This document shows, piece by piece, positions 2,866-10,697 of a DNA stretch of 16,845 nucleotides. The DNA is taken from IMG/VR virus record IMGVR_UViG_2585427778_000001; one strand, 5' to 3'. The stretch's first letter is position 1, and each line of letters begins with the position of its first letter. A program made the translations under genes and the position numbers. Source of the stretch: a virus. Lineage: Duplodnaviria; Heunggongvirae; Uroviricota; Caudoviricetes. The notes beneath the pieces are model-generated. The model saw only the letters and a list, made by a program, of their open reading frames with translations. It had not been told where the DNA came from and ran no database searches.

Positions 2866-3621
2866 TTAAACTGCTAGTTGCAATTGCATTTCAAAGCGGT
2901 CGCGTTGTTCACAATACGCAAGAGAACCAGGGCTATTGTGTGCCTCAATCCGTTCTACCATTAATGCTGCGCGTGTCTCTTTACTTGCAGGTGCATAAGC
3001 CCCAGACCAGGCTTTATCAATACCGATGTTTCGAGCGACGTTCGTACTATCTGCGCTGGCTAAGGGTAATTTTGTGAATATCAGCGGATTTAACATGCGC
3101 AATCCATGTAGTTTCGTAACCGGCTGACCATGCCCATCAACAATGTGACGAATCAGGTCTTTCATTCTGGCTACCGCAAGAGTTGGGCGCTTTACGTCAT
3201 AGTCGCCACAACTACCGATAGCCACTCGCGGAAACTCATTGCACAAATGAATAAATCGCTCGTCACTTTCATTCATGTGCCACACTGGAACGCCAGCTAG
3301 TTTTCCGTGAGGCCACTCATTCAGAAGCGCATCATTTTCCTCCTCTCCGCCATCAATAACATCCGGGATAATGGCAAAATCGAATCCTGGGTGATTCTTC
3401 CAGCGAGCAACAAACTCGTAGTAATCGCTCCAGTCGATTTTGTTTTTGCCAGCTGCTTTCCAGGCGGTGAATGCACCGTTGTCCAGCGCGAACGACTGAC
3501 AGTATTCAGCCGCGAGATTGATCTGGCCTGAATGCGCAAAACTGATAAACGCATGTCGCCCTTTCCATGCTCTCATTGCGCACGTATCAGGAGTAATAGG
3601 CCCACCGTGGTAGTGAATCAT
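2866..3621 (-). CDS. Putative Tgt/DpdA-family transglycosylase-like protein (about 251 aa from MIHYHGG; the ORF extends to 3663)
   Basis: Strong AAGGAG Shine-Dalgarno sequence before the ATG at 3621. Ordered motif resemblance to the Tgt catalytic core, from memory of E. coli Tgt: LDNGAF vs TDSGGFQ; DFAIIPDV vs DIVMIFDEC; VAIGSCG vs YAVGGLAVG; HGLRMLNP vs YLMGVGKP; ADSTNVARNIG vs FDCVMPTRNARNG. No C-terminal CxCxxC...H zinc subdomain. Confidence 0.5.
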   Translation of the reverse strand: MIHYHGGPITPDTCAMRAWKGRHAFISFAHSGQINLAAEYCQSFALDNGAFTAWKAAGKNKIDWSDYYEFVARWKNHPGFDFAIIPDVIDGGEEENDALLNEWPHGKLAGVPVWHMNESDERFIHLCNEFPRVAIGSCGDYDVKRPTLAVARMKDLIRHIVDGHGQPVTKLHGLRMLNPLIFTKLPLASADSTNVARNIGIDKAWSGAYAPASKETRAALMVERIEAHNSPGSLAYCEQRDRFEMQLQLAV

Positions 3622-3622
3622 C

Positions 3623-4030
3623 TCACTCTCCTTTGATGCGAATGCCAGTAGCGCGGATTGCATCGATGACTTCAGAAACTTTGTATGCCATTACCGTTTG
3701 GTAATCATCGTGAAAATCTGTTCGATGAAGCATGCTGCTACGTTCCGGGAGCAGTATTTCCCGCGCTTCCAGTTCTGCAATGCGCTTTTTTGCTGCTTCC
3801 AGTTCATCCAGTAATTCCAGCACGGTAGCCGGATTAGCCTTGGCAACAAAATCCCGGACTGGCTTACAATCAATCTCCGCAATGGGTTGATACGATGTGT
3901 AGCCATGCTGTCTTGTATAACTACCGTGACGAATAACGAAAAAATCACCATTTATTTTTTTAGCCTGCCACTTATCTTCACCGGCTTTCTCTGCCGCTTC
4001 ACGCAGTGCCTGAGAGTTAATTTCGCTCAC
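3623..4030 (-). CDS. Ead/Ea22-like family protein (135 aa)
   Basis: N-terminal QALREAAEKA and coiled-coil LELLDELEAAKKRIAELEA segments typical of prophage Ea22-like proteins as recalled; GTG start overlaps the upstream stop (GTGA), and its stop lies 1 nt from the downstream ATG. Confidence 0.55.
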   Translation of the reverse strand: MSEINSQALREAAEKAGEDKWQAKKINGDFFVIRHGSYTRQHGYTSYQPIAEIDCKPVRDFVAKANPATVLELLDELEAAKKRIAELEAREILLPERSSMLHRTDFHDDYQTVMAYKVSEVIDAIRATGIRIKGE

Positions 4031-4248
4031 TTCGAACCTCTCTGTTTACTGATAAGTTCCAGATCCTCCTGGCAACTTGCACAAGTCCGACAACCCTGAA
4101 CGGCCAAGCGTCTTCGTTCATCTATCGGATCGCCACACTCACAACAATGAGTGGCAGATATAGCCTGGTGGTTCAGGCGGCGCATTTTTATTGCTGTGTT
4201 GCGCTGTAATTCTTCAATTTCTGATGCTGAATCAATGATGTCTGCCAT
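4027..4248 (-). CDS. TraR/DksA-family C4-type zinc finger protein (73 aa)
   Basis: Small protein with CxxC-x17-CxxC (CCECGDP...CRTCASC) and a size typical of phage TraR homologs; ATG start. Confidence 0.7.
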   Translation of the reverse strand: MADIIDSASEIEELQRNTAIKMRRLNHQAISATHCCECGDPIDERRRLAVQGCRTCASCQEDLELISKQRGSK

Positions 4249-4297
4249 CTTTCATTAATCCCTGAATTGTTGGTTAATACGCTTGAGGGTGAATGCG

Positions 4298-4324
4298 AAT
4301 AATAAAAAAGGAGCCTGTAGCTCC
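4298..4324 (-). terminator. Intrinsic terminator on the minus strand between orf61 and the accessory cassette
   Basis: Hairpin GGAGC-tacag-GCTCC followed on the minus strand by TTTTTTATTATT. Confidence 0.6.
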
Positions 4325-4346
4325 CTGATGATTTTGCTTTTCATGT

Positions 4347-4562
4347 TCACCGTTCCTTAAAAACGCCGTTTAACATGCCGATTGCCAGGCTTAAATGAGT
4401 CGGTGTGAATCCCATCAGCGTTACCGTTTCGCGGTGCTTCTTCAGTACGCTACGGCAAATGTCATCGACGTTTTTATCCGGAAACTGCTGTCTGGCTTTT
4501 TTGATTTCAGAATTAGCCTGACGGGCAATACTGCGAAGGGCGTTTTCCTGCTGAGGTGTCAT
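4347..4562 (-). CDS. Lambda orf61-like protein (start uncertain; the ORF extends to 4628)
   Basis: Translation MTPQQENALRSIARQANSEIKKARQQFPDK... matches lambda orf61 as recalled and sits in the lambda position. Confidence 0.7.
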   Translation of the reverse strand: MTPQQENALRSIARQANSEIKKARQQFPDKNVDDICRSVLKKHRETVTLMGFTPTHLSLAIGMLNGVFKER

Positions 4563-4638
4563 TGAACAAGTCCCATGTCGGCAAGCATAAGCACACAGAA
4601 TATGAAGCCCGCTGCCAGAAAAATGCATTCAGTGGTTG

Positions 4639-4830
4639 TCATACCTGGTCTCTCTCATCTGCTTCTGCTTTCGCCACCATCATTTCCAGCTTTTGTGAAA
4701 GGGATGTGGCTAACGTATGAAATTCTTCGTCTGTTTCTACTGGTATTGGCACAAACCTGACTCCAATTTGAGCAAGGCTATGTGCCATCTCAATACTCGT
4801 TCTTAACTCAACAGGAGATGCTTTGTGCAT
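4639..4830 (-). CDS. Lambda orf63-like protein (63 aa)
   Basis: Position and size match lambda orf63; collinear with the lambda coordinate offset used for exo. Confidence 0.75.
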   Translation of the reverse strand: MHKASPVELRTSIEMAHSLAQIGVRFVPIPVETDEEFHTLATSLSQKLEMMVAKAEADERDQV

Positions 4831-7991: not shown

Positions 7992-8118
7992 ATATCACCT
8001 TAAATAGTGGATAGCGGTAGTAAAGATTGTGCCTGTCTTTTAACCACATCAGGCTCGGTGGTTCTCGTGTACCCCTACAGCGAGAAATCGGATAAACTAT
8101 TACAACCCCTACAGTTTG

Positions 8119-8670
8119 ATGAGTATAGAAATGGATCCACTCGTTATTCTCGGACGAGTGTTCAGTAATGAACCTCTGGAGAGAACCATGTATATGATCG
8201 TTATCTGGGTTGGACTTCTGCTTTTAAGCCCAGATAACTGGCCTGAATATGTTAATGAGAGAATCGGTATTCCTCATGTGTGGCATGTTTTCGTCTTTGC
8301 TCTTGCATTTTCGCTAGCAATTAATGTGCATCGATTATCAGCTATTGCCAGCGCCAGATATAAGCGATTTAAGCTAAGAAAACGCATTAAGATGCAAAAC
8401 GATAAAGTGCGATCAGTAATTCAAAACCTTACAGAAGAGCAATCTATGGTTTTGTGCGCAGCCCTTAATGAAGGCAGGAAGTATGTGGTTACATCAAAAC
8501 AATTCCCATACATTAGTGAGTTGATTGAGCTTGGTGTGTTGAACAAAACTTTTTCCCGATGGAACGGGAAGCATATATTATTCCCTATTGAGGATATTTA
8601 CTGGACTGAATTAGTTGCCAGCTATGATCCATATAATATTGAGATAAAGCCAAGGCCAATATCTAAGTAA
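8119..8670 (+). CDS. sieB: Superinfection exclusion protein SieB (the ORF begins at a TTG at 8116; first ATG at 8119)
   Basis: Plus-strand gene between ral and N and convergent with N, as in lambda; hydrophobic N-terminal region (IVIWVGLLLL, FVFALAFSLAI). Confidence 0.85.
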   Translation: MSIEMDPLVILGRVFSNEPLERTMYMIVIWVGLLLLSPDNWPEYVNERIGIPHVWHVFVFALAFSLAINVHRLSAIASARYKRFKLRKRIKMQNDKVRSVIQNLTEEQSMVLCAALNEGRKYVVTSKQFPYISELIELGVLNKTFSRWNGKHILFPIEDIYWTELVASYDPYNIEIKPRPISK

Positions 8671-8994
8671 CTAAGTAAGAGGAATCGATTTTCCCTTAAT
8701 TTTCTGGCGTCCACTGCATGTTATGCCGCGTTCGCCAGGCTTGCTGTACCATGTGCGCTGATTCTTGCGCTCAATACGTTGCAGGTTGCTTTCAATCTGT
8801 TTGTGGTATTCAGCCAGCACTGTAAGGTCTATCGGATTTAGTGCGCTTTCTACTCGTGATTTCGGTTTGCGATTCAGCGAGAGAATAGGGCGGTTAACTG
8901 GTTTTGCGCTTACCCCAACCAACAGGGGATTTGCTGCTTTCCATTGAGCCTGTTTCTCTGCGCGACGTTCGCGGCGGCGTGTTTGTGCATCCAT
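8671..8994 (-). CDS. N: N transcription antiterminator, 107 aa (the ORF extends upstream to 9126)
   Basis: MDAQTRRRERRAEKQAQWKAANPLLVGVSAKPVNRPILSLNRKPKSRVESALNPIDLTVLAEYHKQIESNLQRIERKNQRTWYSKPGERGITCSGRQKIKGKSIPLT matches lambda N with the arginine-rich motif. Confidence 0.95.
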   Translation of the reverse strand: MDAQTRRRERRAEKQAQWKAANPLLVGVSAKPVNRPILSLNRKPKSRVESALNPIDLTVLAEYHKQIESNLQRIERKNQRTWYSKPGERGITCSGRQKIKGKSIPLT

Positions 8995-9222: not shown

Positions 9223-9307
9223 AATATACCTACAGGTAAAACAGTTGTCTATACCTGCAGGTAAATAAAATTGATGTAAGAGTTTACCTGCTTGAATTTT
9301 CAGGTAA
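9223..9307 (-). promoter_or_regulatory. pL/oL region of a non-lambda immunity type
   Basis: Candidate pL TAGACA-17bp-TATATT on the minus strand (plus 9246-9251 and 9223-9228), overlapped by palindromic operator-like sites TATACCTACAGGTAAA (9225-9240), TATACCTGCAGGTAAA (9250-9265) and TTACCTG-N10-CAGGTAA (9284-9307). Confidence 0.6.
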
Positions 9308-9323
9308 TTAATTTTTTGGATTG

Positions 9324-9349
9324 ATATAAAAAAGCCCGCTTTGCGGGCT
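9324..9349 (-). terminator. Intrinsic terminator on the minus strand ending the repressor operon
   Basis: Hairpin AGCCCGC-aaa-GCGGGCT followed by TTTTTATATCAA on the minus strand, immediately downstream of the 104-aa gene. Confidence 0.75.
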
Positions 9350-9360
9350 GAAAGGAGATG

Positions 9361-9675
9361 TCAGAAGCTATTTGGATTGCTTGGCCATTGCGGCAATTTT
9401 GATTCTACTGGGGTGTGTTTGGGTTTGAGTCCGTTTAAGTAGTCAAGACGCTCAATGGCGCATTTATACATAGCAATCTGCTCTGATGACATGTCGTCGT
9501 ATGACATGCCTTTGAACTTTTTAATTATCGATTCTGCCTCATGTATAAGATGCTTCTTCTTCATGAGTTCAGCTGTATGCTTAGAGCTTACAGGAGATAA
9601 CTTTGCCCATATGAAGCAGATGATTACAACAGCGACTACTATGCCGGGTATAAACACTTGCTGCTTTATCCTCAA
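9361..9675 (-). CDS. Small membrane-anchored protein (98-104 aa) co-transcribed downstream of cI
   Basis: The ORF begins at a TTG overlapping the cI stop (TTGA); a likelier start is GTG at 9657 with a GAGGA Shine-Dalgarno sequence. One N-terminal hydrophobic helix (FIPGIVVAVVIICFIWA) then a charged helical region. No family recognised. Confidence 0.6.
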   Translation of the reverse strand: MRIKQQVFIPGIVVAVVIICFIWAKLSPVSSKHTAELMKKKHLIHEAESIIKKFKGMSYDDMSSEQIAMYKCAIERLDYLNGLKPKHTPVESKLPQWPSNPNSF

Positions 9676-10358
9676 ACTTTTGGCAGATCGTCCTGGTCTA
9701 CGTACCTGGTGTGTTTCACAATAGCTGAAACAAAATGCATTTTATCAACTTCTTCAACAGGAAGAGTGATTGGGCGGTGATCACTGTTTATGCTACTAAA
9801 CTGATAATCACCGTCTCTTGTTTTGTTCATGATCTTTATCATGTTGTGACCGTCTTTGGTCCTTACAAAGACTTCATCACCTGGATGTACTGGCGTATTT
9901 GGTTCAATAACAACATATTCTCCTGACTGAATCCTTGGCCACATGCTGTCACCCTTAACCTTCAGACCGTAAGCATCGTTATCGCCGCTGTAGATGCTTA
10001 ACCAACCGGATCTGAATTCAATCATATCCACTGAGCCATCAACTCCCAAAACGGCTTCACCAATTACCGGAACAAAACCCGCACGAACGTTACCCGCAAA
10101 CTCAAGATGGTCTGTAGCTCCAGCTTTACCATCTGCAAGCATGTCCATCCATCCGCGTGGGAGATTAAAAGATTTTTCAATTAGTTCCATCATATCGTCA
10201 GCAATGCGTTTTTTTCCGCTTTTTCCTTCCGGATACAGCATTCTGGAAACGTATGATGGTTCCCTTTCTATTCGACGAGCCAACTCTGAGGCCTTTCCAT
10301 TACAGAATCGGTCTCTTATCTCTATCAGCCTTAGTCGTCTTTGTTCGTATTTATCCAT
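9672..10358 (-). CDS. cI: CI-type prophage repressor (HTH plus LexA-like S24 autopeptidase domain), 228 aa, not lambda cI
   Basis: N-terminal HTH (ASELARRIEREPSYVSRML), a candidate Ala-Gly cleavage site (EFAGNV) and C-terminal GDSMWP...K serine/lysine dyad motifs; divergent from cro across an operator region. Confidence 0.85.
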   Translation of the reverse strand: MDKYEQRRLRLIEIRDRFCNGKASELARRIEREPSYVSRMLYPEGKSGKKRIADDMMELIEKSFNLPRGWMDMLADGKAGATDHLEFAGNVRAGFVPVIGEAVLGVDGSVDMIEFRSGWLSIYSGDNDAYGLKVKGDSMWPRIQSGEYVVIEPNTPVHPGDEVFVRTKDGHNMIKIMNKTRDGDYQFSSINSDHRPITLPVEEVDKMHFVSAIVKHTRYVDQDDLPKV

Positions 10359-10377
10359 GATTTAATTCTATCTTTGA

Positions 10378-10434
10378 TTACCTGCCGGTAAATAACCTAT
10401 GGGTATTGATTTGCTTTTTACCTACAGGTAAACT
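10378..10434. promoter_or_regulatory. oR/pR/pRM region with three operator-like sites
   Basis: TTACCTGCCGGTAAA (10378-10392), TAACCTATGGGTATT (about 10394-10408) and TTACCTACAGGTAA (10418-10431); candidate pR TTGATT (10406-10411) -17bp- TAAACT (10429-10434) upstream of cro. Confidence 0.6.
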
Positions 10435-10466: not shown

Positions 10467-10697
10467 ATGGAAGAACTCCGCTTGTATCTGAACTCCCTTT
10501 CACTGGAAGAGCAGAGAGAATTTGCCACCAAGTGCGGAACTTCTATCGGCTATTTGAGGAAAGCACTTAGCCGTAATCATGAATTGGGCGCAGCACTTTG
10601 TGTTCTGATTGAGAAGTTCAGCAATGGTGAAGTGACTCGCAAAGACCTTCATCCGGTTGATTGGGAAAGCATCTGGCCTGAATTAATGGCCGCTTAA
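10467..10697 (+). CDS. cro: Cro-like HTH regulator, 76 aa
   Basis: First rightward gene after oR, strong GGAAGGAGA Shine-Dalgarno sequence, HTH-like segment ATKCGTSIGYLRKAL. Confidence 0.7.
   Translation: MEELRLYLNSLSLEEQREFATKCGTSIGYLRKALSRNHELGAALCVLIEKFSNGEVTRKDLHPVDWESIWPELMAA

Follow-up and report, generated by a model that had tools for sequence, protein, structure and literature searches.

A small membrane protein gene downstream of cI in a lambda-like prophage belongs to a phage family that replaces sieA in a P22-like relative and is a candidate for superinfection exclusion

We describe a small gene lying directly downstream of the repressor gene cI in a stretch of viral DNA of 16,845 nucleotides (IMG/VR record IMGVR_UViG_2585427778_000001; the window). 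We are very confident that it is a real, conserved, phage-specific membrane protein gene, positioned for production whenever cI is made. In a P22-like locus of Escherichia coli, a member of the same family replaces the reading frame of the exclusion gene sieA exactly, keeping the P22 sieA promoter and ribosome site. Judged by its genomic context, the small protein is somewhat likely to have a role of some kind in defense against other phages, and we put it forward, tentatively, as a candidate inner-membrane superinfection-exclusion protein.

A lambda-like prophage at att-lambda makes up the window, and the segment that in lambda consists of rexB-rexA-cI-cro is occupied there by the mEp043 immunity module. 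This bears out the rexAB position that a preliminary description of the DNA had assigned to the small gene. Over the 1.1 kb around the gene, identity to the coliphage mEp043 immunity region is 99.6%, while the rest of the window is not mEp043; both mEp043 and the window prophage are lambda-like siphoviruses. Near-identical prophages in complete E. coli genomes are found at att-lambda, beside ybhC, with lambda-type int, xis, exo, bet, gam, kil, cIII, ral, sieB, and N on one flank and O, P, ren, and nin on the other. A cI-linked copy of the small gene is carried by 51 of 5,426 complete E. coli genomes (~1%), and a P22-like version of it by 62 of the same 5,426 (~1%). The counterpart in mEp043 is annotated as a hypothetical protein (gp49, 98 amino acids, in RefSeq; 104 amino acids in a 2025 GenBank record). 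The adjacent cI (9672..10358, minus strand) encodes a 228-residue repressor with an S24 peptidase C-terminal domain (PF00717, E = 1.4e-17; phrog_4) and is 99.6% identical to the cI of mEp043.

Several other features of this region were recorded. A lambda-type SieB gene lies beside N at 8116-8670 (plus strand; PF14163, E = 1e-29; phrog_6399), its mechanical open reading frame (ORF) being 184 residues long versus 160 in the RefSeq annotation; the window prophage thus has at least one recognized exclusion gene besides the candidate studied here. The Cro-like protein encoded at 10467-10697 (plus strand) matches the Pfam YdaS_toxin model below the curated cutoff (E = 8e-6; 26 bits versus 30), and such a match is likewise typical of the Cro-type helix-turn-helix proteins of Rac-like prophages. 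The cI linker (residues 73 to 90; 10089-10142) is only 33% identical between the window and the related locus L019, whereas both flanking domains are 87 to 89% identical, and this stretch is the site of most nonsynonymous differences among E. coli variants.

Inspection of the minus strand revealed the order pRM-like promoter, cI, 14-nt gap, small gene, strong terminator, and then oL/pL. The promoter (TTTACC-16-TAGAAT; 10365..10392, minus strand) matches the consensus at 9 of 12 positions, by itself no better than chance, and overlaps the operator at 10378-10391; we infer that it is pRM by analogy with lambda pRM. There are 7 nt between its end and the cI ATG (10358), so that the cI mRNA would be leaderless or nearly so. 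The palindromic operator motif TTACCNGNNGGTA occurs twice in oR (10378-10391 and 10418-10431, no strand assigned), and a motif count placed operators of the same type in oL at 9251-9264 and 9227-9239; in the window as a whole there are 9 strand-matches to the motif versus 0.42 expected by chance. A pL-like promoter (TAGACA-17-TATATT; 9251..9223, minus strand) overlaps the oL region (9223..9264) and drives a lambda-type N gene at 8671-8994, identified by its translation and by the annotation of a near-identical prophage.

No promoter or terminator was found in the sequence between cI and the small gene. An intrinsic terminator (AGCCCGC-AAA-GCGGGCT and then TTTTTTAT; 9324..9349, minus strand) lies 12 nt past the small-gene stop and would end the transcript of cI and the small gene. 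Its stem (9349-9333) has 7 pairs, 6 of them G-C, with a T-run to about 9324, and its folding energy is -12.6 kcal/mol (z = -3.3 versus shuffles). A terminator had been proposed between the small gene and oL/pL, and it is indeed there, with the operators and the pL-like promoter beyond it. Between the terminator and oL2 lies a split palindrome (TTACCTG-N10-CAGGTAA; 9284..9307, no strand assigned), which is kept in two related loci, L019 and L020. Its half-sites are those of the TTACCNGNNGGTA operators but are spaced one helical turn apart; a third oL site of unusual form is one possible reading, and binding by a different protein is another.

The mechanical ORF for the small gene (9361..9675, minus strand) extends up to a TTG at 9675 that overlaps the cI stop codon (TTGA). 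The preliminary description took this overlap as the gene start, which is probably wrong: the TTG is probably an artifact of choosing the first start codon after a stop. Alignment of the homologues suggests that the start is probably GTG 9657, six codons further in, giving a gene of 98 codons plus stop (9361..9657, minus strand; PHROG 10450, equivalent to mEp043 gp49). Codon 7 of the mechanical frame (GTG, 9657-9655) is ATG in all three of the divergent E. coli loci examined (L003 to L005), and a start codon is aligned to GTG 9657 in nearly every homologue, with the pattern M/V-[FYW]-I-[PS]. Database homologues are 97 to 114 residues long, and 98 residues is the length of both the PHROG 10450 profile and the RefSeq annotation of the mEp043 protein. 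In locus L020, the in-frame cI stop is the codon two positions upstream of the small-gene start, and P22-like members have AAGGAGG or GGAGG 5 to 8 nt before the start aligned with GTG 9657.

The small gene has a Shine-Dalgarno sequence (GAGGA; 9669..9673, minus strand) that shares bases with the cI stop codon (TGA, 9674-9672) and is placed 11 nt ahead of GTG 9657. The gap from the cI stop to the GTG is 14 nt; at the equivalent junctions it is 4 nt in L019 and 3 nt in L020. Since the GAGGA overlaps the cI stop 11 nt from the GTG, the layout favors reinitiation by ribosomes ending cI. It is plausible, judging from this arrangement, that cI and the small gene are translationally coupled without overlap of start and stop codons; of the coupling first proposed, the tight linkage and the Shine-Dalgarno sequence over the cI stop stand, but the codon overlap does not.

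The evidence that the gene is real comes from its conservation. Homologues at 29 to 43% identity have in common 11 invariant residues, similar length, and the same start position. Among close variants dN/dS is 0.20 to 0.37, and for distant pairs it is 0.22 to 0.28, with values of 0.2 to 0.3 in four comparisons. The start codon alternates between GTG and ATG, and the frame is intact in every copy examined. An antisense ORF (9455..9724, plus strand) was considered and rejected, as the homologues and the substitution pattern fit the minus-strand frame. The RefSeq annotation pipeline (PGAP) annotates the small gene in none of the 30 genomes listed out of the 51 E. coli carriers (NZ_CP021288, 2587956-2588673, is an example); the P22-like relatives, by contrast, are called as hypothetical proteins.

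Comparison with neighboring genes revealed that the small protein evolves fast yet is under purifying selection. When the window is compared with L019 or L020, the operators are of the same type and identity is 84% for cI and 90 to 92% for Cro, versus 40 to 42% for the small protein. For L019 compared with L026, another locus of this kind, cI has a dS of 0.37 and a dN of 0.009, and the small gene has a dS of 0.59 and a dN of 0.162, a protein-level rate for the small gene ~18 times that of the adjacent cI. This fast-but-constrained pattern is common in proteins of phage-phage conflict and fits such a role, though loose constraint also fits, and the speed could come from weak constraint alone.

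The small protein is predicted to be a 98-residue single-pass inner-membrane protein with a helical-hairpin domain. Codons 1 to 19 (MFIPGIVVAVVIICFIWAK; 9601..9657, minus strand) specify an N-terminal transmembrane helix with a Kyte-Doolittle 19-residue mean of up to 2.5, the single hydrophobic segment in the 98 residues, and AlphaFold models this N-terminal segment as helical. The remainder (codons 20 to 98; 9364..9600, minus strand) is a conserved soluble domain, delimited by the invariant columns and the AlphaFold model. In that model (15-sequence alignment, pLDDT 77.7), a helix from residue 5 to residue 47 emerges from the membrane and is followed by a loop, a second helix (residues 58 to 76), and an extended tail. 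The architecture anticipated for the protein, one N-terminal transmembrane helix followed by a charged helical remainder, is therefore borne out by hydropathy and AlphaFold. The invariant residues are H27, K34, I38, E40, A41, M56, C66, A67, L71, W91, and P92, the Trp-Pro pair falling within the extended C-terminal tail. Every member with a corrected start has no Lys or Arg before the membrane helix and, in the 15 residues that follow, one to four; under the positive-inside rule, this would place the conserved domain in the cytoplasm. A lipoprotein or a cleaved signal peptide was rejected: there is no positively charged N region, Cys14 is not conserved (it is Phe in the homologue P0002), residue -1 is Ile, and a consistent AxA site is absent across the family.

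Profile comparison showed a full-length match of the small protein to PHROG 10450 (E = 1.4e-54; residues 7 to 104 of the mechanical ORF to profile positions 1 to 98), a family that carries no functional annotation and of which ORF14 of phage N7 is also a full-length member (E = 3.2e-52). This is the part of the suggested homology search that gave a relative; Pfam, NCBIfam, PADLOC, and the PDB gave none. Scans against Pfam and NCBIfam found nothing significant, including no SieB domain (PF14163) in the Pfam scan, and PADLOC-DB v2 (5,027 models) yielded 0 families at an E of ≤1. No match to Rex was found in Pfam, PHROG, or PADLOC. A PDB sequence search with the family profile returned only noise from designed helical proteins, and a Foldseek search of the AlphaFold model against the PDB and BFVD gave no hit with an E of ≤0.001, which is unsurprising for a fold of two helices.

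When 1.8 billion representatives were searched exhaustively with HMMER, eight credible relatives at 32 to 43% identity emerged, and a profile search identified 22 clusters, of which every organism-named one is from Escherichia or Salmonella. The proteins P0007, P0012, and P0014 were rejected as relatives, being long or repetitive proteins matched via low-complexity helical stretches. In single-protein scans, P0005 had no match in genome contigs, P0006 and P0024 had no match in viral contigs, and the window protein matched one Escherichia sp. contig; only L026 was useful. The family is confined to temperate lambdoid and P22-like phages of the Enterobacteriaceae, and no chromosomal nonprophage copy was seen. 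The literature on mEp043, the related mEp phages, the protein accessions, and the PHROG identifier yielded nothing on the function of the family. It has no annotation and no relationship to known exclusion proteins, and RefSeq has overlooked its cI-linked copies.

Members of the family were found in two slots, one after this type of cI and the other in P22-like prophages, convergent with the ejection gene 16. The after-cI slot is represented by four independent loci, namely, the window/mEp043, L019 (from a JGI metagenome), L020, and L026 (both from IMG/VR), each of which then continues with N. Over the four loci the gap from cI to the small gene is 3 to 14 nt, and it is 3 to 5 nt in L019, L020, and L026, whose small proteins have diverged. 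The nearest other cI type (50% identity), which occurs in H-19B and a large number of Stx phages, is accompanied by about 1.9 kb of other cargo between cI and N, including a HigB-family toxin, a regulator, and one further ORF (3303-4644 in the phage BP-4795 locus L025; 3167-5114 in the H-19B locus L024).

The P22-like context was found in 9 of 10 further clusters looked up, including that of phage N7 (Lederbergvirus). At these loci the family gene is mostly within about 10 nt of the gene 16 end, on the mnt/arc/ant/tailspike side, and is often the last in the mnt-side cluster; in P22, this gene 16 position is that of sieA. The tenth cluster (L008) lies in a degraded remnant that has genes 7 and 20 nearby and no called gene 16. 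Its family member (4001-4345; P0008, 114 amino acids) is the most divergent of all; the surroundings look like a degraded P22-like remnant with a truncated gene 20, and the gene is adjoined by type VI secretion genes (Hcp and a Tlde1-domain protein). In two other loci (L009, 2554-2886; L017, 4411-4920), the genes lying between mnt and the family member specify membrane proteins whose membrane helix is C-terminal, and one of these proteins has weak holin and hemolysin PHROG matches. A P22-like family member is also carried by NZ_CP081786.1, a 39,448-bp "plasmid" of E. coli 0H26 that, having the size of a P22-like phage genome, may be a circular or excised prophage.

A link to a known exclusion gene comes from the E. 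coli locus L014, where a stretch of 723 nt matches P22 at 98% identity. This stretch takes in the end of mnt, orf59a, the terminator of mnt, the sieA promoter as annotated, and the AAGGAGG, and runs into the start of sieA (GTGT), where it stops four bases in; from there P22 continues with sieA and L014 with the family member. Many database entries of the P22-like subfamily (P0013 and P0017 to P0022) bear false N-terminal extensions of 8 to 72 residues (ending …ILLKTKEVGV), which arise because the sieA promoter/Shine-Dalgarno leader has been translated (L014, 4001-4216). The SieA motif FxRYPxEAxxFNK was absent from the family and from all nine P22-like family loci and was found only in P22. ORF15 of phage N7 (169 amino acids) was considered as a hidden SieA and rejected, as it lacks the motif and its tblastn matches are only to N7 and HZ41, not to P22. 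As far as our searches show, there is no earlier report linking PHROG 10450 to the sieA locus.

P22 SieA is a protein of the inner membrane, expressed from the prophage, that blocks P22 DNA injection via gp16 and gp20 (PMC10883804). The small protein resembles it in its predicted inner-membrane anchor and prophage expression and in the predicted cytoplasmic placement of the conserved region in both. Relatives of the window protein share the position and orientation of sieA, convergent with gene 16, and the L014 relative uses the P22 sieA promoter, ribosome site, and start codon. There is, however, no sequence relationship between the two (hhalign probability of 0.3% when type A was compared directly). 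Type A SieA proteins have three membrane helices in 162 to 164 residues, and the SieA family overall has three or four in about 160 to 200 residues (PMC10883804), versus one helix in the 98 residues of the small protein. Furthermore, the window copy lies in a siphovirus cI operon and not between genes 16 and 9 of a P22-like immI region.

With RexA and RexB of lambda the small gene shares the slot: downstream of cI, co-oriented with it, between cI and oL/pL, and presumably transcribed from pRM. RexB, like the small protein, is an inner-membrane protein but has four membrane helices rather than one. The two lambda genes contrast with one gene here in the interval from cI to the terminator, there is no homology, and Rex acts by abortive infection, which nothing here indicates. 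BstA of the BTP1 prophage is likewise encoded directly downstream of the repressor, presumably from a shared promoter and with its own terminator, but it differs in being large and soluble, in binding DNA, in acting by abortive infection, and in having an aba self-immunity element, and it shows no similarity to the small protein. In architecture only, there is a likeness to gp15 of HK97, a proven exclusion protein that blocks genome entry at the inner membrane (PMC3594210) and that has a short N-terminal tail, one membrane helix, and a charged helix. It differs in its length (62 residues versus 98), in the absence of homology (hhalign probability of 0.5%), in its place within the tail operon under a promoter and terminator of its own, and in having chromosomal YebO relatives, whereas no chromosomal relatives were detected for the small-protein family.

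A prophage-expressed membrane protein in a lysogeny operon is an already known kind of thing, and the idea that genes of the repressor operon are classic sites of defense agrees with the literature, in which the cI-N interval is a cargo and defense hotspot (RexAB and BstA) (PMC8585504). From these comparisons the following course of events can be proposed. In the lysogen, the small gene would be the second cistron of the repressor transcript, started at the pRM-like promoter and stopping at the hairpin (9349-9324); during establishment, transcription would probably also come from pRE. Ribosomes ending cI at TGA 9674-9672 would sit on the GAGGA serving GTG 9657, so that small-protein output should track cI output. 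The N-terminal helix would anchor the protein in the cytoplasmic membrane, with the ~80-residue helical-hairpin domain facing the cytoplasm. The lysogen would then be protected at the inner membrane by interference of the small protein with delivery of incoming phage DNA, as with P22 SieA and HK97 gp15. Inferred in this scheme are production of the protein in the lysogen, its orientation in the membrane, and its action in exclusion, including the step affected.

The proposal of an exclusion or abortive-infection gene thus survives in part. Consistent with exclusion are the operon layout, which matches lambda cI-rexA-rexB; the fast evolution at a dN/dS of 0.2 to 0.3; and the occurrence of the family in two lysogen-expressed slots, with relatives in the sieA slot and the exact replacement of sieA in L014. 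Against it, neither the sequence nor the fold of the small protein resembles SieA, HK97 gp15, SieB, Imm, Rex, or the PADLOC models. Position is weak evidence, since sieA is present in only 22 of 66 sequenced P22-like phages (PMC10883804) and the slot holds other things too. The lambda-like siphovirus carriers lack P22-type ejection proteins, so that a protein directed at phages of its own kind would have no obvious target. The predicted cytoplasmic domain would also lie away from the periplasmic conduit; the SieA motif, however, is also predicted to be cytoplasmic. The silence of PGAP on the gene in the 30 listed genomes of the 51 E. coli carriers likewise counts against exclusion.

A serious rival, though less probable than exclusion, is that the small gene is lysogen-expressed cargo unrelated to phage defense, its product modulating a host inner-membrane protein (a protease, transporter, or stress sensor), contributing to host fitness or virulence, or tuning prophage maintenance or induction. 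Any accessory gene could be expressed from the positions behind cI and mnt, two-thirds of the sequenced P22-like phages have no sieA in the slot, and the related cI type has a HigB-like toxin-antitoxin in the same place; morons, moreover, have many functions (PMC3594210), and the small protein is similar to no defense family. Set against this are the replacement of sieA frame for frame, with its promoter and ribosome site kept, and the restriction of the family to temperate lambdoid and P22-like phages of the Enterobacteriaceae. The ~18-fold-faster protein evolution relative to the repressor also fits conflict better than housekeeping modulation.

Less probable still is an abortive-infection effector or sensor, resembling RexB or small membrane effectors, whose cytoplasmic domain would sense an infection cue and oligomerize or recruit a host factor, such that the cell is depolarized or killed before the invader's cycle completes. 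The slot is common to RexAB and BstA, both of which are abortive-infection systems; a membrane anchor with a conserved, probably cytoplasmic domain is placed to meet phage products, and the fast evolution of the protein agrees with such a role. The small gene stands alone, however, whereas Rex needs both RexA and RexB, and its product has one membrane helix only, no obvious pore-forming motif, and no PADLOC or Pfam match. In addition, the exact swap is with sieA, an entry blocker and not a suicide system. Although exclusion and abortive infection are inseparable with the present data, we favor exclusion because of the exact sieA replacement and the gp15-like build. Finally, that the ORF is a chance one in the 3' untranslated region of the cI transcript, encoding no functional protein, is extremely improbable: the lack of a PGAP annotation would fit it, and the GTG start and the 11-nt Shine-Dalgarno spacing are weak signals, but the reading is effectively refuted by the conservation of length, start, and invariant residues, the dN/dS values, the GTG/ATG toggling in an unbroken frame, and the strong ribosome-binding sites of the P22-like members.

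Taking the exclusion reading a step further, PHROG 10450 might be an unrecognized superinfection-exclusion family that is exchangeable in function with SieA, travels as a cassette between the P22-like immI/sieA slot and the lambda-like cI operon, and blocks DNA from the cytoplasmic face of the inner membrane. This broader proposal we regard as doubtful. If it is true, one protein serves in both settings and may act on a genome-entry step common to short- and long-tailed phages, which would offer an easy genetic approach to the passage of phage DNA across the inner membrane. If exclusion holds, the small protein would be a fourth, unrelated solution to inner-membrane exclusion and a minimal protein for studies of DNA crossing. 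The exact replacement of sieA by a nonhomologous single-helix protein makes for a sharp hypothesis that is cheap to test with existing SieA assays. Genes of the repressor operon decide the phage resistance range of a lysogen and shape phage-phage competition in the gut.
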